From: Phycisphaerae bacterium
GTDB taxonomy: Bacteria > Planctomycetota > Phycisphaerae > Tepidisphaerales > Tepidisphaeraceae
Reading direction: 5' to 3'
Assembly: GCA_031377185.1 (NCBI GenBank)
Contig: JANMES010000070.1
Location: forward strand, 1 to 24,000
Length of the DNA stretch: 24,000 nucleotides
In this document: piece after piece, positions 43-23,292 of the stretch
How the letters are laid out: the number at the start of each line of letters is the position of its first letter
Position numbering within the stretch: position 1 is the stretch's first letter
Notes under the pieces: model-generated
The model's input: only the letters and a program-made list of their open reading frames with translations
Told to the model about the DNA's origin: nothing
The model's database searches: none
Made by a program: the position numbers and the translations under genes

Positions 43-136
43 CGGGGTTTCGGGGTTGTGGGTTCGGGGTTCGGGGTTAATTGGCATATGTTTTCTCTCC
101 CGTAACCCGTAACCCGGAACCCGGAACCCGGAACCC
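43..136. repeat. Inverted arrays of tandem heptads: 5x CGGGGTT-type (43-78), 22-nt pyrimidine-rich spacer (79-100), 5x CG[T/G]AACC (101-136)
   Basis: Read directly. The left arm is cggggtt(t) cggggtt gtgggtt cggggtt cggggtt. The right arm is cgtaacc cgtaacc cggaacc cggaacc cggaacc c. The GGGTTC core pairs with GAACCC, giving 6 bp per heptad with a G.G mismatch between heptads. GACAC occurs at 39-43 and again at 139-143, flanking the element. Confidence 0.8.
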
Positions 137-153
137 AAGACACACTCCTTTCC

Positions 154-807: not shown

Positions 808-868
808 GAGGATGGGGATGAGCAATGAGTCTTTTCCTACTCATCGCTCATCGCTCATCGCTCATCGC
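802..868. repeat. Second heptad-array palindrome: 4 degenerate heptads (802-829), 11-nt spacer, 4x TCATCGC (841-868); likely terminator hairpin of the P450 fragment
   Basis: The left arm is aggtgag aggatgg ggatgag caatgag and overlaps the TGA stop at 805-807. The right arm is tcatcgc x4. gatgagcaatgag (817-829) pairs with ctcatcgctcatc (840-852) at 12 of 13 positions around the loop tcttttccta (830-839), the stem taking in c840. Confidence 0.75.
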
Positions 869-1024
869 ATTCCATTGTGATAGCTTTCCACTTTCCGTCC
901 CCGGGATTCTTCCCCTTGCCCGCAGGGTCGATATAATCGAACGCATCTTTCGTCGCGGCAAACAGTTCGGTCGTTCATCGGAGAACGGCTTTCGGTCGCG
1001 TTGAAAGGGAAGGAGTCTTGGCAC

Positions 1025-6815: not shown

Positions 6816-7759
6816 AGTGCCTCGGCCGGTCCGGTGGCGAGCAATTCTCTCGCGTTTTGTTTCAAAAGTGCATTCATCACCGTCTGCAGCACAACCTGAG
6901 GATCCTGGCCGGTACCGCAAGCGGTAATGACCGGCAGGTTTCCGCCGCGCGCTCCCACTGCCGCATGAAGCGTGATCGAGCCACCGTTCACGCTGGCCAG
7001 CGCGGCGATGGGCGAGTGGCAGTCGCCGTTGAGTGACGCGACGATTCCGCGTTCGAGCCGAACCGCGGCCGCAGTATCCGTATCGTTCAACCGGGCGATG
7101 TACCGCCGGGTTTCGATGTCATTTTCGCGGCATTGGATCAGCAGCGCGCCCTGCCCGGCGGCGGGAAGCATCTGGTCGGTCGGAATGGCGGTCATGCAGT
7201 CGCTGTCGAACAATCCGCTGCGCCGCAGGCCGGACATCGCCAACAGCACCGCGGTGTATTGCCCCTCGCGGCATTTTCGCACGCGAGTATCGACATTTCC
7301 CCGGAGCATTTGCACGTTCAGGTCAGGGCGTAACGCCAGCAGTTGGCAGCGACGCCTGAGGCTGCCGGTACCGACCACCGCGCCCGGCCGTAGCTCGGCG
7401 ATCGACCGGGGACCGAACGAAACAAACGCATCGCGAGGATCTTCCCGCCTGGGAATCGCCCCGATCATCAGGCCGGTTTGATCCACCAGGGGCATCGTGA
7501 CAGGCACGTCCTTGCAACTGTGTACGATGAAATCAATCCGCCCGGCGTGCAAATCCTCCTCGATCTCCTTGGTGAACAATCCCTTGCCACCGAATTCATG
7601 CAACGGACGATCGAGAATCTTATCGCCGGTCGTCTGGAAGATGACCGTTTCAACCTTCAAGCCTTCGTGTTGTTTTTCGAGCGTTTGTGCGATGCTGGCG
7701 CTCTGCAACCGGGCAAGCAAACTGCCGCGCGTGCCCATCCGCAGGGTATGGCTAGACAT
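6800..7759 (-). CDS. hemC: Porphobilinogen deaminase (hydroxymethylbilane synthase)
   Basis: LRMGTRGSLLA, TTGDKILDRPL, GGKGLFTKEIE, VHSCKDVP, and the cofactor-Cys region LNGDCHSPIAA. Confidence 0.95.
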   Translation of the reverse strand: MSSHTLRMGTRGSLLARLQSASIAQTLEKQHEGLKVETVIFQTTGDKILDRPLHEFGGKGLFTKEIEEDLHAGRIDFIVHSCKDVPVTMPLVDQTGLMIGAIPRREDPRDAFVSFGPRSIAELRPGAVVGTGSLRRRCQLLALRPDLNVQMLRGNVDTRVRKCREGQYTAVLLAMSGLRRSGLFDSDCMTAIPTDQMLPAAGQGALLIQCRENDIETRRYIARLNDTDTAAAVRLERGIVASLNGDCHSPIAALASVNGGSITLHAAVGARGGNLPVITACGTGQDPQVVLQTVMNALLKQNARELLATGPAEALCPSR

Positions 7760-8156
7760 GATCCCCTACTTTCGATTCCATGCATTCTTCGATCCGCAGG
7801 TGGATCAGCTCGAGCATCAGATCATTCACTCCGAGCGGCGCAGCCAGTCGGAACGTCGTGTGCGGAAACTTCGCCGCCGCTTCGCGGACCAGACGCGGAA
7901 TGTCTTCCTGCCAGTGTTTTCCGGGCCCGAGGAAGAACGGACAGACAATCACGTCCGTCGCGCCACCCCGAACCGCCGACGCATACGCCGTTGAAATGGA
8001 AGGCTCGGCAATTTCCATGTGGGCCGGCTCGATGATCGAATACTCATCGGTGAACCGCTGTGCAAACCGCTCGACAATCTCATGAAGCAGTAGATTGCTC
8101 TCGACGCTGCGCGAGCCATGATCGACAATGAGAATGGCGGGCTTGTTCCTTCTCAT
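7752..8156 (-). CDS. cbiX: Small CbiX/SirB-type sirohydrochlorin chelatase (ferrochelatase for siroheme)
   Basis: 134-aa product with ILIVDHGSR, VIVCPFFLGPGKHWQEDIP. ATG 8156 forms an ATGA overlap with the hemC-upstream gene hemA's stop, and its own stop overlaps the hemC start by 8 nt. The 223-aa track ORF extension lies inside hemA and is rejected. Confidence 0.8.
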   Translation of the reverse strand: MRRNKPAILIVDHGSRSVESNLLLHEIVERFAQRFTDEYSIIEPAHMEIAEPSISTAYASAVRGGATDVIVCPFFLGPGKHWQEDIPRLVREAAAKFPHTTFRLAAPLGVNDLMLELIHLRIEECMESKVGDHV

Positions 8157-9424
8157 GTTCGATCCAGCAGTTCGGCCACCGCATGAAACGCCTTCGCCAG
8201 CGTGGCGGGCGGAGTGGAATAACTGTGCGTTCGCATCGTCGCAATGCACGGGTGCATGAACTTGCCCATCAGCCGGTCCATGGCTTGGACGATTTCCTTC
8301 TTCTCGTCTTCCGGCAGGTCCGGGCAGCGGCGGAAAAGCCGCTGGATTTCGGCGTCGCGCAACTCGCGGGCGTCGCTGTACACCTGGGCGATCATGGGGT
8401 TGATCTTGGTCTGGCAAAGCCACTTCTCGAAGTCGCTGACTTCCTCATCCAGAATCTTTTCGCAGGCTTCCAGTTGCCCCTGGCGGTGCTGGTTGTTTTC
8501 AGCCACGATCCGGCCGAGGGCATCCATGTCGTAAACGTATACCTGCTCAAGCTGTCCGACGGTTGCTTCAACGTTGCGCGGGACCGCCAGATCGATCAGG
8601 AACAACATCCTGCCGCGGCGGCGCTTCTGGATTTCACGCACACGATCGACCGTCAGGATCGGCTTCGGGCAACTCGTCGCCATGATCGCAATGTCGGCCG
8701 ACGCGAATTGTTCGTCGAGCTGGTCGAATGGGACTGCCGTCCCTTCGCAGGCTTCGGCAATCGCCCTGGCGTTGGCGAGGGTGCGGCTGGTGACGACGAA
8801 TCGTGTCGCGTTGGCTTGCCGTAAGTACTGGCAGACCAGCTGCGCCATATCGCCGGCACCGACCACCAAGGTTTGCTTGTTGGAAAAGTCGGAAAAAATC
8901 TGTTTCGCCACGTCCACTGCTACGGAAGGCACGGAGGTTTTGCCTTCGCTGATGCTTGTCTCGCTGCGAAGACGCTTGCCGACCTCGAACGCGGTGTGGA
9001 AAAGACGGTTCAGCACCCGGCCGGTGGTGCCCTGCTCGCTGGCGATCGAATAGGCCTGCTTGACCTGATTGACGATCTGGCTTTCACCCAGCACCATCGA
9101 ATCCATCCCGCCGGCCACGCGGAAGAAATGGCGAGTCGCCTGTTCGTCGCTCAACTGATAGAGGTAGTTCCGGAACTCCTGTGCCGGCAAGTCTTTAGCT
9201 TCCGCCAGAAAGCTCACGATGTCATTCGGACCAGGCTTCTCGGCGTCGCAGGCGATCAGAACTTCCACCCGATTACAGGTACTGATAATCGCCGCCTCAA
9301 TATTGGGAAACTTGTTTCTCAACAAAAGGAGAGCCGTCGATGCCCCTTCGCGGCTAAATGCAAGCTGCTCACGCAGTTCCACGGGGGCGGTACGGTGATT
9401 TAGGCCGATAAGGTGGATACTCAT
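8153..9424 (-). CDS. hemA: Glutamyl-tRNA reductase
   Basis: The N-terminus LIGLNHRTAPVELREQLAF, the active-site region STCNRVE, and the NADPH Rossmann motif LVVGAGDMA are all present. Confidence 0.95.
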   Translation of the reverse strand: MSIHLIGLNHRTAPVELREQLAFSREGASTALLLLRNKFPNIEAAIISTCNRVEVLIACDAEKPGPNDIVSFLAEAKDLPAQEFRNYLYQLSDEQATRHFFRVAGGMDSMVLGESQIVNQVKQAYSIASEQGTTGRVLNRLFHTAFEVGKRLRSETSISEGKTSVPSVAVDVAKQIFSDFSNKQTLVVGAGDMAQLVCQYLRQANATRFVVTSRTLANARAIAEACEGTAVPFDQLDEQFASADIAIMATSCPKPILTVDRVREIQKRRRGRMLFLIDLAVPRNVEATVGQLEQVYVYDMDALGRIVAENNQHRQGQLEACEKILDEEVSDFEKWLCQTKINPMIAQVYSDARELRDAEIQRLFRRCPDLPEDEKKEIVQAMDRLMGKFMHPCIATMRTHSYSTPPATLAKAFHAVAELLDRT

Positions 9425-9543
9425 GACTCTGTCCTTCCACGGCGGTCTGCCTTACCACGGGCGATCCAAAGCCAAATGACATAACCCCATAGCAATGCAA
9501 GACCTATGGCGTATGCGAGTCGGAGGTAATCCAGAGCTAACAT
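9421..9543 (-). CDS. ccmD: Small single-TM protein, probable haem exporter protein CcmD (40 aa; below the ORF-track cutoff)
   Basis: Hand translation of the minus strand gives MLALDYLRLAYAIGLALLWGYVIWLWIARGKADRRGRTES. This is one hydrophobic helix plus a basic tail, in the canonical position after ccmC. The ATG lies inside the ccmC stop region (ATGTTAG), and its TGA overlaps the hemA ATG (TCATGA). Confidence 0.55.
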   Translation of the reverse strand: MLALDYLRLAYAIGLALLWGYVIWLWIARGKADRRGRTES

Positions 9544-10229
9544 GACGCGAATCCTCCGACGGTGGCTACTGTCGCACGAGTCTCTGAACTGTTATGCAAA
9601 CCGCGTTCCACGCGATTGAGACCATATTTCGTCGCAATCAGCCCCGCCGTGAACGCCGTTACCGCAATGAAGAACAAGATCAGAGTGGCCTTCATCTCGG
9701 GAGCCAATTCAATATGGGAAGGATGGATGTCGGGCATCAGGCGAACTGACAGGTAGACCAGCGGGACATCCAGGAAGGCGATCACCGCGTACACGGCGCA
9801 AATCAGCGCCCGTCGTTCCGACGACTCGATCGAACTGCGAATGATCAGGTAGACCGTATACAGCAGCCAAAGCACCAGGCTGAACGTCAGCCGTGGGCTC
9901 CAGGTCCACCATTGGCCCCAGGCGCATTTGCCCCATATCATTCCGGTCAGCAGGACGATCGTGCAAAGCTGCACCGACACCCGCGCCCCCGCCGCTGCCA
10001 GGTCGTCCCACCAGGTTTTGCGAGTTGCGAGATAGCCGATGCTGGCGACGAACGCCACGAGGCACGCGAGGAACGTATTGATCGCAACGGGCAGATGCAG
10101 GTAGAAGATCTTCTGGATCGGCCCCATCGTCTGCTCATCGGGCGTGTTGATAATGAGCCTCACCATCGCCGCCGTGAAAAGTCCGGCGGTGATCAGCCAG
10201 AAGCCTACATTGGATATTCGTTTCAGCAT
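9537..10229 (-). CDS. ccmC: Haem exporter / holo-CcmE synthetase subunit CcmC
   Basis: Contains the Trp-rich WWD-type motif WGKCAWGQWWTWSPRLT and the conserved periplasmic His context FYLHLP. It has six or more hydrophobic spans and sits in ccmABCD order. Confidence 0.9.
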   Translation of the reverse strand: MLKRISNVGFWLITAGLFTAAMVRLIINTPDEQTMGPIQKIFYLHLPVAINTFLACLVAFVASIGYLATRKTWWDDLAAAGARVSVQLCTIVLLTGMIWGKCAWGQWWTWSPRLTFSLVLWLLYTVYLIIRSSIESSERRALICAVYAVIAFLDVPLVYLSVRLMPDIHPSHIELAPEMKATLILFFIAVTAFTAGLIATKYGLNRVERGLHNSSETRATVATVGGFASC

Positions 10230-10238
10230 GGTTTGCTC

Positions 10239-10907
10239 CTACGGCTCCAGCACCCATTCAAACACCAGCCAGCTGACGACCAGGAAAATCGCATCAAACG
10301 CCACGAGGATGCCCAGCCCCAGCCCGCCGATCGGTTCGTGATCGCGGAAGAGGTGGATGAGCATCTGCGTCGACGAAATCACCAGCGGTAGCGTGATCGG
10401 GAAGATCATCATCGCCAGCAGCCCGCCCTGCAGTCGTGACGAGCTGGCCACCGCAGAAAACAGCGTGCCGACGGCGGCGAAGCCGACCATCGACAGCGCC
10501 ATCACCGCCGCGAATTGCCGCGGGGCGGCCGACAGATCGAATGAGAAGAACAGCACGCCGGCTGGGGTGACGACGATTGCGATCGCGAACATCAGCAGCA
10601 GGTTGCTGATCAGCTTGGCCGCATAGATCGCGCCGCGATCCATCGGGGCGATCATCAGCGCGGCTAACGCGCCGTCCTGCCGTTCGACGTTCATGGTTTT
10701 TTCAAAGCACAGCACGCCGCTGAACAGGTAAGCAACCCACAGCACCGCCGTCGCATCGAACGCCGCCGGTCGACCGCCCAGGCCAAGCCCGAGCACGACG
10801 ATAATCAGCACCGCCAGCACGATCACCAGTCCCAGCGTCTGTCGGCTGCGGGCTTCGATCCGCACGTCTTTCTGCACGAGGTGGAGGATTTGAGCGGTGG
10901 CGTTCAT
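10239..10907 (-). CDS. ccmB: Haem exporter membrane subunit CcmB
   Basis: 222-aa polytopic protein between ccmA and ccmC, with a CcmB-like N-terminus (KDVRIEARSRQ). ATGA overlap with the ccmA stop. Confidence 0.85.
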   Translation of the reverse strand: MNATAQILHLVQKDVRIEARSRQTLGLVIVLAVLIIVVLGLGLGGRPAAFDATAVLWVAYLFSGVLCFEKTMNVERQDGALAALMIAPMDRGAIYAAKLISNLLLMFAIAIVVTPAGVLFFSFDLSAAPRQFAAVMALSMVGFAAVGTLFSAVASSSRLQGGLLAMMIFPITLPLVISSTQMLIHLFRDHEPIGGLGLGILVAFDAIFLVVSWLVFEWVLEP

Positions 10908-11692
10908 GGCCCGTTGATCTCCGCCAGAACCAGTTCCGGATCGACGTTGTCCGTCGGGCGGTCGGATTCGACCTTGCCGTTGCTTAGCACGATGGCGCGC
11001 TTGGCGATTCGCAGGCTTTGCGGCACATCGTGGTTCACCATGATGATCGTCCGCCCGGCTGCGTTCATGCGGGTGAATAGTTTTTCCAACCCTTCAGACG
11101 ACCGTGCATCCAGCCCCGCGAACGGCTCGTCGGCCAACAGCAGATCGGGGTTGTGAACCAGCGCCCGCGCGATCGACACCCGCTGGGTCATCCCACGGCT
11201 GAAGGTTTTCACCGCGTCGTCGCCACGTTCTAGCAGGCCCACGGTGCGGAGAATGGCGTCGGTCTTGACCTTGACGTCGTCCACGCCGTACAGCTTGGCG
11301 AAAAACGCGATGTTCTGCCTGGCAGAAAGATCGCGGTAAAGCATGGATTGATGCCCGACGTACCCCACTCGCCTGCGGATCGCAGGGTCGGCGGTTCTGA
11401 GGGATTCGCCAAACAGTTCCACGTTCCCCTCGTCCGGCGTGATCATCCCGATCAGCAGCTTTAGAAGCGTGCTCTTTCCCGCGCCGTTGGAGCCCAGCAC
11501 GGCGAGAAACTCACCGGCGGCGATTTCAAGGCTGATGTCGCGCAGCACCGGGCGCTCATCGAGCCGCTTACCCACGTTGGTCAGTCGTACCGCGTTCAAT
11601 GGCTTGGCCCTGAAGGAGGCTCGCGTTGGAGAAAGAGTGGCGAACACGTTGCGCTCATGCTTTCTTGGGCTTAAGGAGGATGGCCGCACCAA
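10904..11692 (-). CDS. ccmA: Haem exporter ATP-binding subunit CcmA (ABC ATPase)
   Basis: Walker A GSNGAGKST, signature-like FSRGMTQR, Walker B LLLADEP. The start is uncertain: TTG 11692 overlaps orfX by 38 nt, and in-frame GTG 11647 lies 8 nt after the orfX stop. Confidence 0.85.
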   Translation of the reverse strand: MVRPSSLSPRKHERNVFATLSPTRASFRAKPLNAVRLTNVGKRLDERPVLRDISLEIAAGEFLAVLGSNGAGKSTLLKLLIGMITPDEGNVELFGESLRTADPAIRRRVGYVGHQSMLYRDLSARQNIAFFAKLYGVDDVKVKTDAILRTVGLLERGDDAVKTFSRGMTQRVSIARALVHNPDLLLADEPFAGLDARSSEGLEKLFTRMNAAGRTIIMVNHDVPQSLRIAKRAIVLSNGKVESDRPTDNVDPELVLAEINGP

Positions 11693-12893
11693 CGAACAGG
11701 ATGATCACGGCGCCCAGCCCGCCAACAATCTGCGGCGTCTTGTTGGCGCCGGGGATGTTGGCCGACGGAGCCGCCGCGAGTGCGGTCGGTTCGCCAGCGG
11801 CTTGCGCCTTCGGAACGTTGGGAAGGTTGCTGAGCACAACGCCCACCGCCGCGCCGGCCTTGATGTCCTGTCCTTTGAAGTACCGCGTAACGCTTCCGCG
11901 ATCGTTGGGCTTTGAGCCGAGCGATTCCAGCCCCTTGGCTTCAAGGGTCGAGCCGTCCTCGGGCACAAAAAGCATCATCTTGTCGATCCCGGCAGGCGGA
12001 TCGATCAGCAGATTGATCTTGCCCTCAACAGCAGGCACGCGATAGCGGAGTTGGATTGCCGTAGCTCCGGGCAACATCGGGTCGGAACTGACGATGCGGT
12101 CATTCACGATCGTCGCGCCGCCTGCCCGCAGGCCGGCCATCAGTTGCACGTCCGTGGCCCCTTTCGGCAGCGGCCAGGAGAGAGCTGCACGCTTGCCATC
12201 GGCACCGCTCGGTCCGAGGTACGCTCGGTCGGACGGGTTTTCGGTGTTCATCATCTCCATCACCACGGCACCGTCGCCAGCCGGGCTGACCATGACGTGA
12301 CGGACTTTCACCCGCCATTCCGGAGCGACGTCAGTCGTCTCATACACCGTAACGCCGATGCGCTGGCCGGTGCGTTGCATGTCCATCACCTCGCCTTGCG
12401 TGATAAAATCCACGCCATTGTGGGTTACTTTCACCAGCGGCTGGAACTCGACGAGGACCGGGATGTTCTCCACGGTGATTTTTCCATCGGCCTGCAGGCG
12501 CGAGGCGGTTTTGAAAACCACTTGCCCGTTGTGATACGCCTCGACGGTGACCGGATCGGCCCCGATCGCCGGCGCGCCGGCGGTGCCCTGTTGGGCTTCG
12601 ATGAAGAGTGTCGGCAGTTGCGGCTGAGTGGTCGGAACCGCGTTGGCGTTTTTGCCCATCCCTGGAATCTGCGGGTGCCCAGCCGGAAGTTTGCCGTCTT
12701 TGGCCTTTTGCATCAGATCTTTCAGATCAGGATGCCCACTCGGCAAAGCCGGAGCGTCCTGCTGCTGTTGTGCCTGTAATTGCGAAATGTCCGGATGACC
12801 CTTGGGCAACACCGGCGCGGTCGTCGGCGAAGCCGCCAACGCCAACGGCGAGACGCTCAACACATACACGATGGATTGAACCAGCTTGTTCAT
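11655..12893 (-). CDS. Uncharacterised periplasmic, C-terminally membrane-anchored protein embedded in the ccm operon; three LPxGHPx[IL] repeats plus beta-rich domains
   Basis: Signal peptide MNKLVQSIVYVLSVSPLALAA. Repeats are LPKGHPDI, LPSGHPDL and LPAGHPQI (aa 29-76). The central region is beta-strand-like. C-terminal TM is IVGGLGAVIILFVGAAILL followed by KPKKA. ATGA overlap with the ccmF stop. Confidence 0.8.
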   Translation of the reverse strand: MNKLVQSIVYVLSVSPLALAASPTTAPVLPKGHPDISQLQAQQQQDAPALPSGHPDLKDLMQKAKDGKLPAGHPQIPGMGKNANAVPTTQPQLPTLFIEAQQGTAGAPAIGADPVTVEAYHNGQVVFKTASRLQADGKITVENIPVLVEFQPLVKVTHNGVDFITQGEVMDMQRTGQRIGVTVYETTDVAPEWRVKVRHVMVSPAGDGAVVMEMMNTENPSDRAYLGPSGADGKRAALSWPLPKGATDVQLMAGLRAGGATIVNDRIVSSDPMLPGATAIQLRYRVPAVEGKINLLIDPPAGIDKMMLFVPEDGSTLEAKGLESLGSKPNDRGSVTRYFKGQDIKAGAAVGVVLSNLPNVPKAQAAGEPTALAAAPSANIPGANKTPQIVGGLGAVIILFVGAAILLKPKKA

Positions 12894-14950
12894 TGCCGCA
12901 CCTTCTGTTTCTTCGAGAGCTTGACGTGCTTCTTGTTCTGCTTGACTGCGGCCTGCGGCTTGGCGGTCGCCGGCGGTGGGGCAACGGCCTCAGTCATCGG
13001 AAGTGACTTGTGCGGCTCAAACCGCGGCAGCAGACAGAGGATTCCGCCGGCCGTCAGGACGATGCCGCCTACCCAGATCCAGCTCACCAGCGGATCGATG
13101 ATCGCCTGCACGGTGACGCGGGTTCCGTCCTGCTCCCAGCCGGCCAGCGTGAGATAGAGGTCTTCGCGCCAGGTCGATCGGATCGCGACCGAAGCGGACG
13201 ATTCCTCGGACTTGTCGTAGAACCGCCGCTGCGGGAGTAGCGTGCCCATCTCGCCAGCGGAGTTGGTGTAGGTCAGCACGGCCTGCACGGCGGAGAAGTT
13301 GACGTCGCGGACTTCCTCCAGCTTCACCAGCGCGAGGTCGTATTGCCCGATCCTGGCGGTTTGGCCGGGTTTGAGTTCGAAGTTCTGCTTTTCGCTGAAC
13401 TGACTCGACCCGACCACGCCGACGATGAACAGCAGGACGCCCACGTGCGTGATCTGCCCGCCGTAACGTCGGTGATTGCCGTCGAACAGGCGGAGGGTGG
13501 CTACCAGGAGATTCTCGTGGTGAGCGGACGAGCGAATCCACGCAGAGGCGATGAAATCGGCGGAAACGGTGAACGCGGCCGTGACGGAGATGAACGTTGC
13601 GGAGATCGCCCAGGCATTATGTATACCGCGGCCCCACACCACGCCCGCAGCTAGGACGCCGAGGATCGCCGGGATCGCCAGTTTGCGGCCGAGCAGATGG
13701 CCGGCGCTCTTGCCGTACCGCAGGAACGGCCCGGCCGCCATGATCGCCGCCAACACCAAGCTAACCGGACCGACGGTCGTGTTATAAAAACTTTGCGACA
13801 CACTGACCCCTTGAGGCATGAAAATGCCGCTGATCAGCGGGAAGATCGTCCCCACGAGCGTAATCCCGGTCATCGCGATCAGCAGCCACCCCGCTGCCAG
13901 AAACGCGCTCTCGCGGCCGACGAGGGATTCGATCTTCTGGTCGGTCGCCAGTGCTCGGCGTTTGCTGACAAGCAACAACACGCTAGAAATCACCAGCAAG
14001 CCGAGGAAGATCAGGAAAAACGTGCCGATCAGTGATTCGCCGAAACTGTGAACCGACTGCACCACGCCTGAGCGGGTCAGGTAAGTTCCGAAGATGCAGA
14101 GGATGAAGTTCACCGCGATCAGCGCGGCATTGAGGCCCTTAAACATGCCGCGTTGTTGCTGAACCATCACGGTGTGCAGCAGCGCCGTCGCGGTGAGCCA
14201 AGGAAGCAGCGAGGCGTTTTCAACCGGATCCCACGCCCAGTAGCCGCCCCACCCGAGTTCAACGTACGCCCACTGAGCGCCTAATAGAATGCCCACGCTC
14301 AGGAACAGCCAGGAAGCCACCGACCACCATCGCACGGCGCGCAGCCAACCGGCGTCGTCGCGGCCGGTTAGCAGCGCGCCGACCATCAGTGCGAACGGTA
14401 CGGCAAACCCGGCGTAGCCGAGAAACAGCATCGGCGGATGGGCAATCATGCCCGGATCCTGCAACATCGGATTCATCCCGTGCCCGTCGGCGGCCACCAC
14501 TGCGGCAAGCTTGAACGGGTTGGCGGCGAACAGGATCAACGCAGCGAAAAAGCCGCAAATCACCGCGAGCACGGCGGTTGTAAACGCCCGTTCGCGTGCG
14601 TCGGCCCGGTGCAGAAATACCGCAATCACCGAGAGAACCGCCAGAAACCATGCCCACAGCAGCAAGCTGCCTTCCTGTCCCGCCCAAAATGCGGCGAGCT
14701 TGTAACCGAATGGCAGTGCCTTCTCCGTGTAGTGGGTGACGTATTCCAGGCGGAAATCTGAATTAACCTCCGCGATCATCAACATCGCCGACGAGGCCGT
14801 AATAAGGCCTGCGAACAGAAACAAGCCTCGGTTGGCTAACGCCAGCAGATGTGCGTCACGCTTCTGGGCCGACGCAACGGAGAGCAGCAGCGCCATCGCA
14901 CTGACGAGAACTGCGGCACACAGACTATAGTTGCCGATTAAGATGGTCAT
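12890..14950 (-). CDS. ccmF: Cytochrome c haem lyase subunit CcmF
   Basis: 686-aa polytopic protein with the canonical WWD motif WGGYWAWDPVENASLLPWL. ATGA overlap with the ccmE stop. Confidence 0.95.
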   Translation of the reverse strand: MTILIGNYSLCAAVLVSAMALLLSVASAQKRDAHLLALANRGLFLFAGLITASSAMLMIAEVNSDFRLEYVTHYTEKALPFGYKLAAFWAGQEGSLLLWAWFLAVLSVIAVFLHRADARERAFTTAVLAVICGFFAALILFAANPFKLAAVVAADGHGMNPMLQDPGMIAHPPMLFLGYAGFAVPFALMVGALLTGRDDAGWLRAVRWWSVASWLFLSVGILLGAQWAYVELGWGGYWAWDPVENASLLPWLTATALLHTVMVQQQRGMFKGLNAALIAVNFILCIFGTYLTRSGVVQSVHSFGESLIGTFFLIFLGLLVISSVLLLVSKRRALATDQKIESLVGRESAFLAAGWLLIAMTGITLVGTIFPLISGIFMPQGVSVSQSFYNTTVGPVSLVLAAIMAAGPFLRYGKSAGHLLGRKLAIPAILGVLAAGVVWGRGIHNAWAISATFISVTAAFTVSADFIASAWIRSSAHHENLLVATLRLFDGNHRRYGGQITHVGVLLFIVGVVGSSQFSEKQNFELKPGQTARIGQYDLALVKLEEVRDVNFSAVQAVLTYTNSAGEMGTLLPQRRFYDKSEESSASVAIRSTWREDLYLTLAGWEQDGTRVTVQAIIDPLVSWIWVGGIVLTAGGILCLLPRFEPHKSLPMTEAVAPPPATAKPQAAVKQNKKHVKLSKKQKVRQ

Positions 14951-15369
14951 GGTTGGGCCTCGGCTCCGGTCTTCTTGGGATGGCCGGTCGGTTCATATTT
15001 GCTGGCGCACTTGGTCATCAGCACATCGGCGTGGAAGACATGGTCTGCGCCCATTTGGCCTTCGACGACGATTTCATGGTCGGCGCGGAACATGTCCGGA
15101 ATCACACCGCAGTAAACGACGTGCAACTGCTCCTTCGTGCCCTTCATATTGAAATCGGCGACAAGCCCGGCACGGTCGATGATCAGGTTCCCCGCGGCCA
15201 CCTTCCCGTTCAGGCGAACGCGGCGGGATTGGTAGGAGGGATCATTCACGTACTGATCCAGGGGCAGGAAATAGACCCAACCCTTCTTCACCCCCGCGAT
15301 GGCGAGGTAACTGATGGCCGCCACCAGGACGAAGGCTCCAAACGACAGTTTTAGCTTCATCGAGTTCAT
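14947..15369 (-). CDS. ccmE: Haem chaperone CcmE, variant with Cys replacing the haem-binding His (CXXXY)
   Basis: N-terminal membrane anchor followed by an OB-fold-like body (VRLNGKVAAG, HVVYCGVIPDMFRADHEIVVEG). The C-terminal motif is LMTKCASKYEP where canonical CcmE has HxxxY. Confidence 0.9.
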   Translation of the reverse strand: MNSMKLKLSFGAFVLVAAISYLAIAGVKKGWVYFLPLDQYVNDPSYQSRRVRLNGKVAAGNLIIDRAGLVADFNMKGTKEQLHVVYCGVIPDMFRADHEIVVEGQMGADHVFHADVLMTKCASKYEPTGHPKKTGAEAQP

Positions 15370-15731: not shown

Positions 15732-15821
15732 TCGCACCTGTTGTCCTCCTATGGAACGGACGGACGTGGCCGGGCAGCGGAGTCCCAATGTAAACCCCGC
15801 GATCTTTTTCGGAGATCTTTT

Positions 15822-16526
15822 ATGAAACGCTTAACACTATTAGCTGCGATCATTCCCATGATGCTAGCAGCCGCAGCCTATGGGCAGACCAAAAGTCTGA
15901 CTCAAATCACTGCGACCAAACATAATTTCAACGCCGACGGATATGCATGGGCCGACGGCGAGATCTGCAAACCCTGTCACACCCCGCACAATGCGATGCA
16001 GGATGCCAGCATCAGCACGCGTCTGTGGAACCACAAGCTCACCACCGCAACCTACACGTTGCACGATGGTGTGACCACCGCCACCTACGACCAGGCGTTG
16101 GACCGCTACAGCCGCCTGTGCATGAGCTGCCATGACGGTACGGTCGCTCTGGACGCTTTCGGAATCAACTCCGACGGCACACCGAATGACGGCGTCGACA
16201 CCGCCGGTTTCAAGAGGACACCGTCCAATCTTGGCACGAACCTGGTGAACGATCACCCGGTCGGGCTGGGCGCGAACTACACCTCAGCCTCGGCCAAGCC
16301 ATACTTCAATAGTATGACGACCCCGGTTGCTCCGAGCACGACCTATAAGATCGGCGCTCTGAGCCTGGTGAACGCCACCGTCAGTGGCGCCAGCGTCCAA
16401 GTTGTTGGGTGCAGCACCTGCCACACCCCGCACGGTAAAGGTCTGACTGCCGGCAACCCGTACAAGCACCTGCTGGTGATGGATAACAGCAACAGTGCTC
16501 TGTGCCTGAGTTGCCACATCAAGTGA
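15822..16526 (+). CDS. Secreted tetrahaem cytochrome c
   Basis: GGAGA sits 6 nt upstream of ATG 15822. Signal peptide MKRLTLLAAIIPMMLAAAAYG. Four CXXCH motifs: CKPCH, CMSCH, CSTCH, CLSCH. The upstream part of the track ORF (15741-15821) is not needed. Confidence 0.9.
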   Translation: MKRLTLLAAIIPMMLAAAAYGQTKSLTQITATKHNFNADGYAWADGEICKPCHTPHNAMQDASISTRLWNHKLTTATYTLHDGVTTATYDQALDRYSRLCMSCHDGTVALDAFGINSDGTPNDGVDTAGFKRTPSNLGTNLVNDHPVGLGANYTSASAKPYFNSMTTPVAPSTTYKIGALSLVNATVSGASVQVVGCSTCHTPHGKGLTAGNPYKHLLVMDNSNSALCLSCHIK

Positions 16527-16545
16527 TGAAAGAGAGGCCGCCGGG

Positions 16546-16568
16546 GGGCCAGTGCAATGCACTGGCCC
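16546..16568 (+). terminator. Perfect GC-rich palindrome 20 nt after the tetrahaem cytochrome stop; possible intra-operon attenuator or terminator
   Basis: GGGCCAGTGCA-a-TGCACTGGCCC has 11-nt arms that are exact reverse complements. No clear T-tract follows (cttacc). Confidence 0.4.
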
Positions 16569-16677
16569 TTACCGGCGACCCCACACAAGTCGTTGCATCG
16601 GCCCCGTCCGCCCGTTCCATAGATAGTAAGGTCCGCACTTGAGGGAGTCGAGTCAGTTTGAAAGGTTGGATTTGAAG

Positions 16678-17925
16678 ATGTACACACCCCACCGAATCGC
16701 TGTGAACGCCTTGGTCCTCTGCTCCCTGTTCGCTTTAATCGGTTGCCAATCGCAAAAACAAGTCACCGCCCCTCGCGAGATCTCCTTCTGGCCCGCTCCG
16801 CCGGATGAACCTCGGATCCAGTTCCTGACCTCCTACGTCTCGTCGGCTGATGTCGCCGAAAGGCAGACGGGCATCGAGGACTCGATCTACGGCAAAGCCG
16901 ATATCCTGCCGATCACCAAGCCGTACGGCGTGGCGATGTGGCAGGGGAAGGTCTATGTATGCGACATCCGCAATAAAGGCGTCACTGTTTTGGACTTGCG
17001 ATCGAAACTCACCCGCGTCTTAGGGGCCGGTGGTGTGGGCGTCATCGAGAAAGCCATCGACATCGCCATCGCGCCTGATGGGTTTAAGTACGTCGTTGAC
17101 GGAAACCGCGCCGTGATTGTCGCGTTTGACGCTCAGGACAAGTTCTCCGGTGTGTTCGGGCCCAAGGATTTCAATCCGGTCAGCATCGCGGTTTACCAGA
17201 ACGAACTGTTCGTCGCCGATTTCCGCGGGCAGAAAATCAAAGTCCTCGACCGCGTCACAGGGAAGCAACTCCGCACGATCGGCGAAGCCGGGCCCGATGA
17301 CGGGCAATTCGTCCGCCCGCTGGCGGTACGCGTTTCGCCGAAGGGGATGGTCGTCGTCTCCGACATCATGAAATGCCGCATCCAGACCTTCACCCGCGAT
17401 GGCAAGTTCGTCTCTGCTCACGGCCAGATGGGCAACAGGCCCGGCGATCTGAACAAGCCCAAGCACATGGCGTTTGATGCCAACGGCTTCATTTACGTCG
17501 TCGATGCCGGCTTCAACAACGTGCAGATCTTTGACGACGAAGGCAAAGTTGTCGACTATTTCGGCTCGGCCGGCGCTCACCCGGGGTCGATGGATCTGCC
17601 GGCCGGTATCTTCGTTCAGGAAGGGGATTTAGAGCTGTTCGAGAAGTACATTCATCCCGCGTTCCAGCCCGAGCGATTGATCGTCGTCACCAACCAGTTC
17701 GGACCGCACCGCGTGGCGGTGTATGCTCAGGGTCACCTGAAGAAAGGCAAAACCGTCGCCGACGTGCTGCCGGGTCGGGCGAATGTGGCTGCCGGGATCG
17801 AAGACCCCAACAAGGCCGCCACCACCCAGCCCGTACCGCTGAAAGACCGGCTGCCCGCGCCGCTGGATACGCCCTCGACGAAGCCGACCTCGGCACCGGC
17901 CGCGCCGTCGCCTTTCGTGAAGTAA
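16678..17925 (+). CDS. NHL-repeat six-bladed beta-propeller lipoprotein (paralog 1) with a Pro/Thr-rich C-terminal tail
   Basis: Lipobox LFALIGC. Repeated NHL-type blades: PYGVAMWQGKVYVCD, AIAPDGFKYVVD, IAVYQNELFVADFRGQKIKVLD, VRVSPKGMVVVSD, MAFDANGFIYVVDAGFNNVQIFD. Confidence 0.85.
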   Translation: MYTPHRIAVNALVLCSLFALIGCQSQKQVTAPREISFWPAPPDEPRIQFLTSYVSSADVAERQTGIEDSIYGKADILPITKPYGVAMWQGKVYVCDIRNKGVTVLDLRSKLTRVLGAGGVGVIEKAIDIAIAPDGFKYVVDGNRAVIVAFDAQDKFSGVFGPKDFNPVSIAVYQNELFVADFRGQKIKVLDRVTGKQLRTIGEAGPDDGQFVRPLAVRVSPKGMVVVSDIMKCRIQTFTRDGKFVSAHGQMGNRPGDLNKPKHMAFDANGFIYVVDAGFNNVQIFDDEGKVVDYFGSAGAHPGSMDLPAGIFVQEGDLELFEKYIHPAFQPERLIVVTNQFGPHRVAVYAQGHLKKGKTVADVLPGRANVAAGIEDPNKAATTQPVPLKDRLPAPLDTPSTKPTSAPAAPSPFVK

Positions 17926-17980
17926 CTCGACCCAGGCGCCCCACTACATCCTCCCGGATCAGGGCGCCCTCAGGTGCCCC

Positions 17981-18640
17981 ATGGCCGACCGATGCTCATC
18001 CCGATGGACTCTGCTTCGGCGGATCATCGTACCCCTGCTGGCGATCGTCATGATCGCCAGTTGGTTCGGATGTACAGCACAAAAGCGGTACGTCGTCCTG
18101 AGCTTCTTCTTCGACGGCGTGCCTGACCCAAGCAAACCCGCCCCCGGATCACGCGGGACCATCGGCGTCAACGGCCAGGTGGTACTCGCCTCCCACGTCC
18201 ACAAACCCTACGCCGACGGCAACTGCCAGGCCTGCCACACCGGCGGAACCGACAGCGTCTTTCGCGCCAGCAGCGGGTTGAGTATTGAATCCGACGTCTG
18301 CCTGAAATGCCACCAGAAAGTTCTCACCCAATACCCCGTCATGCACGGTCCGGTGACGAGCGTGGAGTGCCTGCGGTGTCATACGCCACACGAATCGAAC
18401 TCCGCGCACTTGCTGAGCAGCGCTTCTCCGCGGGTGTGCGTGCAATGTCACACGCCCGAGCTTTTGTCGACCAAACCCCCCGAGCATATGGTTAAGACCG
18501 CCGACTGCCTGAGCTGCCACAGCGGGCACGGCGGACTGAAACACAAGCTCCTGCTCGACAGGACAACCACCCGTCCGGCAACGCAGCCTGCACCCTCCTC
18601 GAAAATCGCGATGGCCAACCCCCAGCGGGAGAAGCCATGA
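17981..18640 (+). CDS. Pentahaem c-type cytochrome, probable lipoprotein
   Basis: Five CXXCH motifs: CQACH, CLKCH, CLRCH, CVQCH, CLSCH. The N-terminal hydrophobic span ends in the lipobox-like WFGC. The stop overlaps the start of the next gene (ATGA at 18637-18640). Confidence 0.9.
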   Translation: MADRCSSRWTLLRRIIVPLLAIVMIASWFGCTAQKRYVVLSFFFDGVPDPSKPAPGSRGTIGVNGQVVLASHVHKPYADGNCQACHTGGTDSVFRASSGLSIESDVCLKCHQKVLTQYPVMHGPVTSVECLRCHTPHESNSAHLLSSASPRVCVQCHTPELLSTKPPEHMVKTADCLSCHSGHGGLKHKLLLDRTTTRPATQPAPSSKIAMANPQREKP

Positions 18641-20652
18641 GGAACCCGAGCTGCATCCCGACAGGCTCAAGGCTTCTCGTTGCAGCCGCTTGTGTCCTGC
18701 TGGCCAGCCGGCTGGCGATGGCACAATCCGACGAAACACCGGTATACGGCGCTAGACAACGTCCTCCTGTGGTTGATTTTGAACGCATTACCGGCGACTT
18801 CAGCCTGACCGTAAGAGCGTCAAAGGAGGAGCAGACACCGAAAACCGGCGACAAGACCAAGACCAACGAATTGATCTTTGAAGAAGCTCTCACGCTCCGC
18901 ACTAACGGATACGTCGTCACGCCTCGATTCGCGGTCATCAACCTGAGCGGCCGGTTCGGGCTCAATCAGGATTATCTCGATCAAACCGATCGAACGGAGA
19001 GTACCAACTCCACTATCTACGAGTGGGACACCTCGGCCACCTTTCTGCAGGACAGTTCCAAGCCGCTCACGCTCTACTCGTCGCAGTCGCGATCGTTGGT
19101 CGATCGGTCGTTCGGATCAACCCTTGAGGACACCACCACGACGTATGGCGCCCTGTGGCAACTGAGATCTCCCACCCTGCCCACCGAGCTGCGCGTCTAT
19201 CGCGAAACCCAAACCCAGTCGGCTCTGAACAGTAGTGAGCCTGATTTCAACATCGAACGCAACGCTTTCGACTGGCACACGGAATACAAGATCTCCGAGC
19301 GCCAGCACGCAGACTGGAACTACCACCTGGAATCGACCGACCAGAACAGTTCGTCAGGCGTGAGCGAAACCAGCACGTCTCAATCGGCGTCGCTGACACA
19401 CTCGTACGTTTTTGCCGACAAGCTGGGATCATCGCTGGATTCGGGCGTAAGCTGGTCCCATGTCACCGGACTGTTCCCGATCGAAACCGAACGATGGAGC
19501 GAACGCCTCCGGCTGCGCCACACCAGAAAATTTGAGACCAACTACGAGTATTCCATCGACCGACAGGACTACAACACCAACAGCCAAATCCGACAGCGCG
19601 GCGTGGTCGGATTTCGCCACCAGTTGTACGAAAGCCTCACCACGATCGGCCGAACCGGTTGGCAGCAGATTGATCTGTCGGACGACAGCCAAACCACCAA
19701 CTGGTTCGACACGCTCGACTTCAACTACAACAAGAAGATCCCGTACGGGCTGATGCTGGACACGTTGAGCCTGTCCTACGATCGTCAGAACAACACCGCT
19801 CGGCAGGCCACTACGCAGGTGCAGAACCAACCATTGATCTTTACCAGCTATGCTCCGGTGATCATCCAGCAGCGGAATATCGTTCCGTCGTCGGTGGTGA
19901 TCCGCGATGCGACCGGGCAGCTCTATCTTCCCGGCGACGGCTATACCGTGATCGCCGTGCCCAACGGTGTGCAGATTCAGCCCGAACCGGGCGGGCCACT
20001 TCCGTTGAATGAACCGCTGTTCCTCTTCTACGACATCGGACCGGCACCGGCGAATATCATCACCTCCAGGGGACTGAGTATCAGCATCCGCTACGAAATC
20101 CAGCGGGGCTGGCTCAAGGGAGTCAGCCCGTACGCTCGGTATGGCATGATCGATCAGGACGTGGAAGGCGGGATGGATCAGGTCAAACCCAATTCGTCCC
20201 GCAGCTATATTTATGGCGTGGATTACCGGGTGCGGGATTTCCGATTCAAAGCCGAGCGGGAAATCGTCGAAAGCGACCTGTTTCCCTACGACACCACCCG
20301 CTACGAAGCCCGATACGACCACCGCGCCACCGTCTCCACCACCATTTCTCTCAGTGCCATCTACAGCGACACCCATTACACTGAGCAAAATACCGAAATC
20401 CAAACGCTTCTGGTAAACGGAGGATTGGCCCACCAGATCAGCCGAAACCTCACTTTCAACGCCTCGGCGGCCTGGGTTAACATCGACGACAATACCAGCG
20501 GCATGACCAACGGCTGGGAGGAAGAACTCAGGATCACCTGGCAACATCGACAGACCGAGATCTACGGTCGAGTCCGTAACGCCACACTCGACACCGATAA
20601 CGACACCCGGTCGTTCCAGTTCCTGGAAGTTGGCATTCGGCGGGAGTTTTAG
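18637..20652 (+). CDS. Predicted large outer-membrane beta-barrel protein (porin component of a cytochrome conduit?)
   Basis: Signal peptide ending LAMAQ. Composition is rich in Ser, Thr, Asn, Gln, Tyr and Asp, with many short alternating amphipathic stretches. No Cys or haem motifs. The C-terminus is ...LEVGIRREF, with the terminal Phe typical of BAM substrates. Confidence 0.7.
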   Translation: MRNPSCIPTGSRLLVAAACVLLASRLAMAQSDETPVYGARQRPPVVDFERITGDFSLTVRASKEEQTPKTGDKTKTNELIFEEALTLRTNGYVVTPRFAVINLSGRFGLNQDYLDQTDRTESTNSTIYEWDTSATFLQDSSKPLTLYSSQSRSLVDRSFGSTLEDTTTTYGALWQLRSPTLPTELRVYRETQTQSALNSSEPDFNIERNAFDWHTEYKISERQHADWNYHLESTDQNSSSGVSETSTSQSASLTHSYVFADKLGSSLDSGVSWSHVTGLFPIETERWSERLRLRHTRKFETNYEYSIDRQDYNTNSQIRQRGVVGFRHQLYESLTTIGRTGWQQIDLSDDSQTTNWFDTLDFNYNKKIPYGLMLDTLSLSYDRQNNTARQATTQVQNQPLIFTSYAPVIIQQRNIVPSSVVIRDATGQLYLPGDGYTVIAVPNGVQIQPEPGGPLPLNEPLFLFYDIGPAPANIITSRGLSISIRYEIQRGWLKGVSPYARYGMIDQDVEGGMDQVKPNSSRSYIYGVDYRVRDFRFKAEREIVESDLFPYDTTRYEARYDHRATVSTTISLSAIYSDTHYTEQNTEIQTLLVNGGLAHQISRNLTFNASAAWVNIDDNTSGMTNGWEEELRITWQHRQTEIYGRVRNATLDTDNDTRSFQFLEVGIRREF

Positions 20653-20653
20653 G

Positions 20654-21682
20654 ATGAGACACCACCTCGCACTATTCCTGCTTGTGATCGCCGCCGGTTG
20701 TAGCACACCGGCGGGCGTGATCTTTCCCGACCTGCCCAACGCCCCCCGCTGGCCTGGACCGCCCGATCAGCCGCGAATCCGATACGTCGGACAACTGCAG
20801 AGCAATGTCGATCTCAAGCCCGGCGTATCGTTTGGAGAAAAACTGAACCGCGCGATCTTCGGTAAGAACCCAACCCAGACCATGCTCACCCCGTTCGCCG
20901 TCTGCACCGACAACGTCTCCCGCGTATTCGTTGCTGACTCCAACGCACAGGTGGTACACGTTTTCGATCTCAAAACACGCAAGTACTCGCAATGGCGGCC
21001 GGAAAACAAACACAAGCGATTCGATCAGCCCGTGGGCATCGCGTACGACCCGGGCGGGAGGTTGCTCGTCTCGGATTCCGTTGCAGCGTGCATCTACGTC
21101 TTCAACGCCGACGGCAAATACACCGGTACGATCGGCAACGGTCATTTCATGAGACCCTGCGGGCTGACGATCCATTCGATCACACGCCGTATCTACGTCG
21201 CAGATTCCGCGGCGCATCAGGTCGTTGTCCTATCCGCCAACGGGCAGGAACTGGTGCGGGTCGGCAAGCGAGGCAACAAGCCCGGGGAGTTCAACTTCCC
21301 CATCTCCGTCGCCATCGATCGCCAGGGCCGGCTCTACGTTGCCGACGCGCTCAACTTCCGCGTGCAGCAGATCGCGCCGGACATGAAGACCGTTCAGGTC
21401 TTCGGGCGTAAGGGCGACGCACCGGGATATTTCTCTCAGCCCAAGTGCGTGGCGGTGGATAACGAAGATCACGTGTATGTGGTCGATAATCAGTTCGAAT
21501 CCGTGCAGGTGTTTAATTCCGACGGCGCCTTGCTGATGGATTTCGGCGAAGAAGGGCGCGGCCCCGGGCAGTTCTGGCTGCCCACGGGCCTGTTCATCGA
21601 TTTCGGCAACCGAATCTGGATCGCCGACAGTTACAACCGCCGACTACAGGTGTTTGATTATCTCCCGGAGGTCAAGCCATGA
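20654..21682 (+). CDS. NHL-repeat six-bladed beta-propeller lipoprotein (paralog 2)
   Basis: GGGAG lies 7 nt upstream of ATG 20654, which is 1 nt after the barrel gene stop. Lipobox VIAAGC. NHL blades: VFVADSNAQVVHVFD, IAYDPGGRLLVSD, IYVADSAAHQVVVL, VAIDRQGRLYVADALNFRVQQI, VAVDNEDHVYVVDNQFESVQVFN, IWIADSYNRRLQVFD. Confidence 0.85.
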   Translation: MRHHLALFLLVIAAGCSTPAGVIFPDLPNAPRWPGPPDQPRIRYVGQLQSNVDLKPGVSFGEKLNRAIFGKNPTQTMLTPFAVCTDNVSRVFVADSNAQVVHVFDLKTRKYSQWRPENKHKRFDQPVGIAYDPGGRLLVSDSVAACIYVFNADGKYTGTIGNGHFMRPCGLTIHSITRRIYVADSAAHQVVVLSANGQELVRVGKRGNKPGEFNFPISVAIDRQGRLYVADALNFRVQQIAPDMKTVQVFGRKGDAPGYFSQPKCVAVDNEDHVYVVDNQFESVQVFNSDGALLMDFGEEGRGPGQFWLPTGLFIDFGNRIWIADSYNRRLQVFDYLPEVKP

Positions 21683-23292
21683 AACGGCTGATGTTTATCC
21701 TCGCGTGGTGGATGCTGGCCGCTACCGCGGTTGCACAGCAGCAGAGCATTGTGAACAGCCCGCACAACCTTTCCGCCAACGGCCCGGGGGCAGTGCGCGC
21801 CAGCAATGAGCAGGAAGTTTGTATCTTTTGCCATACGCCGCACAACGCCGCTCCCGTCCAGCCGCTATGGAACCGCAACACCCCGGCCAGCACATATCGG
21901 GTGTATTCCAGCAACTCCCTGCAAGCCGCCCCGGGCCAGCCGACGGGGTCGTCAAAGCTCTGTCTGTCGTGTCACGACGGGACGATCGCGCTCGGCAGCG
22001 TGCTTTCGCGCGAGCAGCCGATCGCCATGGCCGGCGGAATCACCACCCTGCCGCCGGGCACTACCAATCTGGGCACCGATCTGTCGGATGATCATCCGAT
22101 CTCCTTCAAGTACGATGCGGCGTTGACACAAAAGAATCTGAAACTCAAAGACCCCGCGCTGCTCCCTCCCGACGTAAAGCTCGACGCGAACAAGGAAATT
22201 CAATGCACCAGTTGCCACAACGCCCACGACAATCAGTTCGGCAAATTCCTCGTCATGGACAACACCCATTCCGCGCTTTGCAGCAGTTGCCATAGCAACG
22301 GCACGACCTCAGTGGTGGGTCACAGCGAATGCGCCAACTGCCACCAGCAGCACAGCGCCCCGAGTGGACCTTACCTGCTGAAAGCCGCAAAGGTGAGCGA
22401 TACCTGCCTGACTTGCCACAGCGGCACGGGCGGCGCAAACCAGGGGGCGGACATCGCCAGCGACATCAATAAGTACAGCAAGCACGACACATCCAGCCCC
22501 GTGAACCTGGCCGATCCGTATCCGAACAATGTCGGCTGCAGCGATTGCCACGAACCGCACACGATGACCGGCGTGATTGCGTCAGCCCCGTCAATCTCCG
22601 GGAAGTTCGGCAAAATCAATGGCGTGAATGCTTCGGGCGTGCCCGTGGTCAACGCGCAGTACGAGTACGAGGTTTGCTTCAAGTGCCACGCCGACAAATC
22701 CGCCGTCCCGCCGACAGTCAGCCGGCAGGTCGTCCAAGCCAATCTGCGACTGAAGTTTGACCCGACGGCCGTCAGCTTCCATCCGGTGGAGGCGGCTGGT
22801 CGAAACACCAATGTGCCTAGCCTGCGGCCGGGCCTGTCGACCGCGAGCATCATCTACTGCAACGACTGCCACAACTCCGACACCGGCAAGAAAGCCGGCA
22901 CTGGCGGGCCGGACGGCGTGCATGGGTCGATCAACAAGCCTCTGCTCGTTGCGCGGTACGACACGCTCGATAATACCCCAGAATCCGAAGCCACCTACGC
23001 ACTCTGCTACAAGTGCCACGACCGCAACAACATCCTGGCCAACGCTTCGTTCACCAAGCACAAGGAACATGTGGTCGATAAACGCACGACATGCTCTACT
23101 TGCCACGATCCGCACGGTATCCCATCGGCCCAGGGAACGGCGACGACCAACGCGAACCTGATCAACTTCGACACGTCGATCGTGCAGCGCGACCCAGTGA
23201 CGCAGAAACTCGAATACCGCTCCACCGGCCCCGGCCATGGCACATGCACGCTAAGCTGCCACGGCGTGGTTCACTCGGGCACAGCGTATTGA
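21679..23292 (+). CDS. Secreted multihaem cytochrome c with 11 CXXCH motifs plus one C-terminal CX3CH
   Basis: ATGA overlap with the preceding NHL gene. Signal peptide MKRLMFILAWWMLAATAVA. Motifs: CIFCH, CLSCH, CTSCH, CSSCH, CANCH, CLTCH, CSDCH, CFKCH, CNDCH, CYKCH, CSTCH, and CTLSCH. Confidence 0.9.
   Translation: MKRLMFILAWWMLAATAVAQQQSIVNSPHNLSANGPGAVRASNEQEVCIFCHTPHNAAPVQPLWNRNTPASTYRVYSSNSLQAAPGQPTGSSKLCLSCHDGTIALGSVLSREQPIAMAGGITTLPPGTTNLGTDLSDDHPISFKYDAALTQKNLKLKDPALLPPDVKLDANKEIQCTSCHNAHDNQFGKFLVMDNTHSALCSSCHSNGTTSVVGHSECANCHQQHSAPSGPYLLKAAKVSDTCLTCHSGTGGANQGADIASDINKYSKHDTSSPVNLADPYPNNVGCSDCHEPHTMTGVIASAPSISGKFGKINGVNASGVPVVNAQYEYEVCFKCHADKSAVPPTVSRQVVQANLRLKFDPTAVSFHPVEAAGRNTNVPSLRPGLSTASIIYCNDCHNSDTGKKAGTGGPDGVHGSINKPLLVARYDTLDNTPESEATYALCYKCHDRNNILANASFTKHKEHVVDKRTTCSTCHDPHGIPSAQGTATTNANLINFDTSIVQRDPVTQKLEYRSTGPGHGTCTLSCHGVVHSGTAY

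Follow-up and report, generated by a model that had tools for sequence, protein, structure and literature searches.

The 24,000-nucleotide stretch of DNA analysed here (the window) encodes a CcmE that is a genuine haem chaperone in which a cysteine replaces the haem-binding histidine. We put the probability that this Cys-type CcmE is functional, and serves as the haem chaperone of System I* by the standard four-step scheme, at roughly 85%. The host is a Phycisphaerae planctomycete from the GTDB family of Fontivita pretiosa (Tepidisphaerales-type), and as the original prediction had anticipated for an organism lying outside the archaea and Desulfovibrio, the known distribution of the variant is thereby extended. 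The operon runs in the order ccmE-ccmF-orfX-ccmA-B-C-D and continues into hemA-cbiX-hemC-ahbAB; a cluster of cytochrome genes is oriented divergently from it. By position in the window, the features are:

5781..6920, minus strand: fused ahbA-ahbB, sirohaem decarboxylase (NF040708, 247 bits, and NF040707, 241 bits; start uncertain)
6800..7759, minus strand: hemC, porphobilinogen deaminase (PF01379, 245 bits)
7752..8156, minus strand: small CbiX-type chelatase (PF01903, 80.5 bits; its ATG overlaps the hemA stop codon)
8153..9424, minus strand: hemA, glutamyl-tRNA reductase (PF05201, PF01488, PF00745)
9421..9543, minus strand: ccmD-like ORF of 40 aa with a single TM segment (overlaps the end of ccmC and the start of hemA)
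9537..10229, minus strand: ccmC (PF01578; alignment to chain C of 7F02)
10239..10907, minus strand: ccmB (PF03379, 90 bits)
10904..11692, minus strand: ccmA, ABC ATPase (PF00005 and conserved synteny; start codon uncertain)
11655..12893, minus strand: orfX, 412 aa, with a signal peptide, three LPxGHP repeats and a C-terminal TM anchor
12890..14950, minus strand: ccmF, 686 aa (PF16327 and PF01578; 4-nt overlap with ccmE)
14947..15369, minus strand: ccmE, 140 aa, Cys-type haem chaperone (PF03100)
14995..15009, minus strand: codons of the CXXXY haem-binding motif, C121-A-S-K-Y125 (translation and alignment to E. coli H130/Y134)
15741..23292, plus strand: divergent cluster of likely substrates, comprising 4-, 5- and 11-haem cytochromes, two NHL propellers and a 671-aa protein (Pfam, CXXCH counts and co-occurrence with ccmE in the family)

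In the ORF translation, the C-terminal part of CcmE reads ...HADVLMTKCASKYEPTGHPKK... and the protein ends in ...HADVLMTKCASKYEPTGHPKKTGAEAQP. Positions 14995-15009 correspond exactly to the CASKY pentapeptide and nothing more, with the Cys121 codon at 15009-15007 (gca on the plus strand, TGC on the minus strand) and the Tyr125 codon at 14997-14995 (ata on the plus strand, TAT on the minus strand). A phmmer search against the PDB pairs VLMTKCASKYEPT with VL-AKHDENYTPP of E. coli CcmE (1SR3/8CE8), whereby Cys121 falls on His130 and Tyr125 on Tyr134. The proposed CXXXY motif in place of HXXXY is therefore confirmed by translation and alignment alike, and no histidine occupies the attachment position when the protein is aligned with characterised CcmE proteins. 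A System I* CcmE has a Cys at the His130 position and a Tyr, rarely a Phe, four residues further on, and this is the arrangement found (C121 and Y125); a His-type System I CcmE would have a His where Cys121 stands. The best PDB match is the Cys-type CcmE from D. vulgaris (2KCT, LMTKCP), and non-CcmE structures are absent from the phmmer matches.

Membership in the CcmE family, which calls for an N-terminal membrane anchor, an OB barrel and a PF03100 score above the cut-off, is equally clear. The Pfam match covers residues 32-127 with 86.8 bits against a cut-off of 24.6, and the AlphaFold2 (AF2) model (pLDDT 87) comprises a TM helix (residues 2-29), an OB barrel (33-119) and a flexible tail from residue 120. 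Since the model confidence collapses just past residue 120, Cys121 is predicted to open the flexible tail, like His130 in E. coli. Foldseek places five CcmE structures at the top of its matches (8CE8 chain E, 1SR3, 1LM0, 1J6Q and 2KCT). Against the NCBIfam CcmE equivalogs the protein stays under every cut-off (77.9 vs 126 bits), which indicates that it is divergent.

The cysteine is a conserved feature of the relatives. A word-based search retrieved [LMV]TKCASKY in 104 of 107 homologues, a proportion biased by a search that favours the motif, and in the genome collection [LM]TKCASKY was found in 146 species. When 1.84 billion cluster representatives (50% identity) were scanned with HMMER, free of that bias, 1863 relatives were recovered, and the motif column was read in the nearest 146 of these, that is, the query and 145 fetched representatives. 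Cys occupies the column in 137 of the 146, eight are truncated and one has Trp, and His was found in none of them. These data bear on the suspicion that a canonical His-type gene shows a Cys codon only through faulty sequencing or assembly. No point in favour of an error was found, whereas a change from His to Cys would take two base changes (CAY to TGY) and Cys is present in every relative read, from independent assemblies. Its probability is negligible, and on this conservation across independent assemblies we consider the error reading already refuted.

The genes for ccmE, F, A, B and C and the ccmD-like ORF are all intact, with overlapping stop and start codons, and the gene set of System I* (CcmA, B, C and F together with CcmE) is represented by Pfam matches in one operon. 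According to the motif census, CcmF retains a canonical WWD motif (WGGYWAWDPVE). As for CcmC, alignment to chain C of 7F02 shows that the His ligands corresponding to E. coli H60 and H184 are both retained, and the WWD motif is WGQWWTWSPRL (residues ~100-112), with Ser-Pro at the position of E. coli Asp126-Ala. The form with Ser for Asp126 is common to 47 of the 55 planctomycete loci in the census. The 40-aa ORF after ccmC has zero Pfam or NCBIfam matches, even with permissive thresholds; we read it as CcmD on the grounds that 54 of 61 related loci have an ORF of the same type behind ccmC, in most cases overlapping by 4 nt and with the consensus ..QY.ILAYA.GLGLLWGYA..LW...R.

The haem-synthesis genes that follow include the AhbAB that the original prediction named together with the extra orfX, and both are present; the fused AhbAB scores above the cut-off for both NF040708 and NF040707. 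The small CbiX-type chelatase is probably a sirohydrochlorin ferrochelatase. The sirohaem-dependent (Ahb) haem pathway is typical of archaea. Ferrochelatase was not found in the genome, and AhbD- and AhbC-like radical-SAM genes are located on the same contig at 34-38 kb (34.3-38.2 kb), so that the sirohaem route looks like the sole route to haem b. A second hemA (454 aa) on contig C147 makes the hemA of the ccm operon an extra copy; it adjoins a gene for a 328-aa CcsA/HemX-like protein of the cytochrome-assembly family (locus L160 1448-3729, minus strand).

The assembly (5.04 Mb, 95.75% complete) contains a single ccmE. The Pfam scan of the operon bears out the claim that it carries neither ccmG nor ccmH, and a search for copies elsewhere yielded no second ccmE and, at 95.75% completeness, no PF03918 match that would indicate CcmH. 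The corresponding search for ccmG and dsbD homologues had a mixed outcome: CcmG was not found at the equivalog level, the best TIGR00385 match, on another contig, reaching 62.6 of the required 123 bits, and on contig C106 a DsbD_TM (CcdA-like) gene shares its open frame with a weak thioredoxin-like match. Generic thiol reductants are thus at hand. The broader statement that CXXXY is typical of clusters without ccmH is correct for this locus but does not hold as a rule. In a phylum sample of 300 Planctomycetota genomes, 41 have CcmE, and in 28 of these 41 a CcmH gene lies downstream of ccmE, in the same orientation and at the distance of one ccmF; about one third of bacteria with Cys-type CcmE possess CcmH, and its absence is not obligatory for the variant (PMC3601427). 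In the class Phycisphaerae, CcmH was found in none of 301 genomes (300 sampled and that of the window).

In Phycisphaerae, orfX occupies the slot that is held by CcmH in the other Planctomycetota classes. With the pattern L[ML]TKCASKY, 80 loci were fetched, of which 68 are from Planctomycetota, nearly all labelled Phycisphaerae, as are the named homologues. The gene order ccmE-ccmF-orfX-ccmABC is shared by 63 related Planctomycetota loci; of the 68, 63 carry orfX between ccmF and ccmA, and some of the remaining five are truncated. The 12 loci of other phyla (Desulfonatronovibrio, Neomarinimicrobiota, Chloroflexota, Poribacteria) all lack it there. The protein has no Pfam or NCBIfam match, permissive thresholds included, and the AF2 model shows all-beta periplasmic domains with pLDDT above 95 for residues 94-360. 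The Foldseek matches to the OST1/ribophorin subunit and the N-terminal domain of M1 aminopeptidase were set aside as generic beta-sandwich similarity (TM-scores <0.3), uninformative with respect to function. Lacking any cysteine, the orfX of the window is unable to reproduce the thiol chemistry of CcmH; it probably helps CcmF handle the apocytochrome. The number of LPxGHP repeats in the orfX orthologues varies from 0 to 5, and many CcmE homologues have similar GHP, NHP or SPH motifs in their C-terminal tails (here YEPTGHPKK, 14947-14990).

All Planctomycetota CcmEs read from the genome samples are Cys-type (61 of 61): 41 of 41 in the phylum sample, with motifs such as TKCPSKY, TQCPSRY, AKCPSRY and TKCSSKY, and 20 of 20 in the class sample of 300 genomes (CcmE in 25, or 8%), where the motif is mostly TKCASKY. 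As in the window, ccmE of the other Planctomycetota classes adjoins ccmF, but the motif there is CPSKY, CPSRY or CSSKY, CcmH directly follows ccmF in 28 of the 41, and the proteins belong to a separate CcmE clade. In a FastTree phylogeny of CcmE (n=92), the class sequences, including that of the window, form one clade with three sequences from other classes (support 0.98), and most of the CcmH-linked CcmEs of other classes form another (support 0.91); with a single His-type outgroup and weak deep nodes, the tree cannot decide between a single and a multiple origin of the Cys-type protein. Two flavours of the system can thus be separated in the phylum: that of Phycisphaerae has orfX where that of the other classes has CcmH, and the contrast offers a natural comparison for the role of CcmH and for how CcmF works without it. 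The question is testable, as Fontivita pretiosa B-254 and strain ZRK34 are cultured carriers with complete genomes.

According to the summary in PMC3601427, System I* was defined by Allen 2006 and Goddard 2010 as a Cys-type CcmE with covalent haem that works without CcmH and CcmG. The original prediction correctly named archaea and Desulfovibrio-type bacteria as carriers, but the published range is wider, the hosts listed in 2011 being archaea, delta-proteobacteria, Chloroflexi and Firmicutes (Stevens et al. 2011, PMC3601427). Within a literature coverage that is incomplete, we found no papers pairing ccmE with Phycisphaerae or ccmF with Planctomycetota, and the phylum, not named for the variant in the literature found, is here added to the hosts of Cys-type cytochrome c maturation. 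As the Cys-type CcmE itself has been known since 2006-2011, this extension is real but incremental.

Compared with System I* of Desulfovibrio desulfuricans and D. vulgaris (CPSKY, 2KCT; ccmEFABCD(I)), the window shares the Cys at the His130 position with Tyr at +4, the TKC-SKY context, ccmE-ccmF placed before ccmABCD, the presence of CcmD and the absence of CcmH. It differs in having CASKY instead of CPSKY, the latter being the commonest Cys-type motif (PMC3601427), and Ser for the Asp of the CcmC WWD motif. It also has orfX between ccmF and ccmA, which is absent in all Desulfovibrionales loci read, an operon that runs into haem-synthesis genes, and a planctomycete host that possesses System II as well. 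The Ccm system of M. acetivorans (CcmABCEF, CXXXY; PMC9084895) likewise combines a Cys-type CcmE with the absence of CcmH, but archaea lack CcmD and have a split CcmF and scattered genes, unlike the CcmD-like ORF, single CcmF and single operon of the window. The pairing with an Ahb haem pathway, the kind typical of archaea, is a further shared trait. E. coli CcmE (HDENY; 1SR3, 8CE8) has the same N-terminal TM anchor, OB barrel and motif-bearing flexible tail, and CcmABCD and CcmF are partners in both systems; here, however, Cys replaces His130, CcmH is absent, no dedicated CcmG was found at the equivalog level, and the identity to E. coli CcmE is only ~20–25%.

In the four-step scheme, haem b would be presented by CcmC at its tryptophan-rich loop, where both His ligands are conserved, and the Cys121 thiol of CcmE would then bond covalently to a haem vinyl group, with Tyr125 as axial ligand. 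The CcmAB ATPase and the small CcmD would release holo-CcmE, which would pass the haem on to CcmF for attachment to CXXCH without CcmH. That the Cys-haem bond is covalent and that the haem is handed over are inferred from the homologous proteins studied experimentally in D. desulfuricans and M. acetivorans. In D. desulfuricans CcmE, haem is covalently attached to the Cys, and the operon works in E. coli without CcmH or CcmG (PMC3601427); in M. acetivorans, CcmE C120 is needed for haem binding and cytochrome maturation (C120A/C120H; Gupta et al. 2022, PMC9084895). An alternative would be that no covalent Cys adduct is formed in this clade, the haem being held non-covalently with Cys121 and Tyr125 acting as ligands only. 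A thioether bond is hard to reverse chemically, a puzzle raised in PMC3601427, and the motif here is CASKY and not the CPSKY of the tested proteins, both of which would fit non-covalent binding. On the other hand, the adduct of D. desulfuricans CcmE is covalent, C120 was required for the haem stain of M. acetivorans CcmE (PMC9084895), and the TKC-SKY flanks are common to the CcmE of the window and the tested proteins, so that we judge non-covalent binding improbable.

Several observations count against a functional System I* chaperone: the absence of CcmE from the same-genus genome G552, the sub-equivalog CcmE score, the Asp to Ser change in CcmC, and the presence in the same genome of a System II CcsBA fusion (1052 aa) that could mature cytochromes by itself. 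If CcsBA did all of the maturation, the ccm operon would be redundant or idle and CcmE would have no physiological role. This reading agrees with the finding of ResB in 33 of 43 sampled family members, among them G552, from which ccmE is absent, making the system dispensable for the lineage, and with the sparse distribution of ccmE (8% of the genomes sampled in the class, and 11 of the 60 family genera). Yet none of the seven ccm genes is disrupted, they are translationally coupled, and the CcmE motif and gene order are kept in >60 species at 40-55% identity, which points to selection. Moreover, ResB matches were obtained for 185 of the 301 genomes of the class, whereas just 11 of the 26 ccmE carriers (the genome of the window included) gave one; from the lack of a ResB match in the other 15, System I* appears to be the sole maturation system in many carriers, although ResB matches are weak in Phycisphaerae and some of these calls may be false negatives. 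As the ccm genes also co-occur with a specific multihaem cluster, an idle operon is unlikely, and we favour a working Cys-type chaperone.

This multihaem cluster is encoded next door, and its cytochromes are the likely main clients of the ccm operon. Seventeen ORFs of the genome contain at least three CXXCH motifs each, 168 motifs in all; seven of these ORFs, with 66 of the motifs, are found at 15.8-31.1 kb of the ccm contig. A homologue of the tetrahaem protein adjoins ccmE in 49 of 80 loci, and the 671-aa protein of the cluster, for which there is no Pfam or NCBIfam match, was followed through the family with one genome per genus (60 genera). Its homologue is present in 12 genera and ccmE in 11; 10 have both, one has ccmE only, two have the homologue only and 47 have neither, numbers that describe a pattern and no statistic, since the genomes are kin. 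Where the two occur jointly, they are often on one contig, a few kb apart. The tight co-occurrence of ccmE with the multihaem cluster suggests that a maturation system can move together with the proteins it serves.

Just past the window, at 24.4-31.1 kb of the same contig (C79), are four further multihaem ORFs (13, 12, 11 and 10 CXXCH), followed by a sensor kinase/HAMP pair and then the AhbD-/AhbC-like genes; about 33 kb of the contig are given to haem synthesis, haem attachment and cytochromes. As for the haem supply, a true AhbA match occurs in 13 of the 60 genera, 9 of the 11 with ccmE compared with 4 of the 49 without, and ferrochelatase in two of the 60. We considered whether AhbAB is a mere background haem pathway of the family, which is not clearly so with true AhbA in only 13 genera. 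A weaker AsnC-like paralogue (AhbA match of ~45 bits, open frame ~390 aa) is widespread in the family (for example G570:C1:111320-111718 and G486:C1:4384505-4384906), and many carriers of this weakly matching gene lack both true AhbAB and ferrochelatase; it may be a divergent sirohaem decarboxylase. A wider reading, which we offer tentatively and regard as possible but doubtful, is that the Cys-type Ccm of Phycisphaerae is not a housekeeping system but a co-inherited island. It would have its own haem supply (hemA-cbiX-hemC-ahbAB, with ahbD-/ahbC-like genes 20 kb off) and its own haem attachment (ccmEF-orfX-ABCD, with orfX for CcmH). Its substrates would be the OmcE-like multihaem cytochromes alongside, and System II would serve the rest of the cell.

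Comparison with G552 was also considered as a means of placing insertion borders, but synteny is restricted to window positions 88-2580 (the P450 gene and a 563-aa ORF) and no borders could be drawn. Downstream of the syntenic part, G552 has no counterpart in the genome of the window (G000) save a 60-nt stretch at the end of the synteny (6300-6360 of locus L169, from G552:C76), which is 100% identical to G000:C114:34411-34470. Copies with 81-89% identity are present on three other G000 contigs, and the stretch is probably a small dispersed repeat. The P450 ORF in the window (154-807, plus strand) covers only the C-terminal 217 aa, whereas the G552 gene is full-length with an open frame of 509 aa (2867-4393 of L169); the partial ORF agrees with an earlier-noted break point at 27-143.
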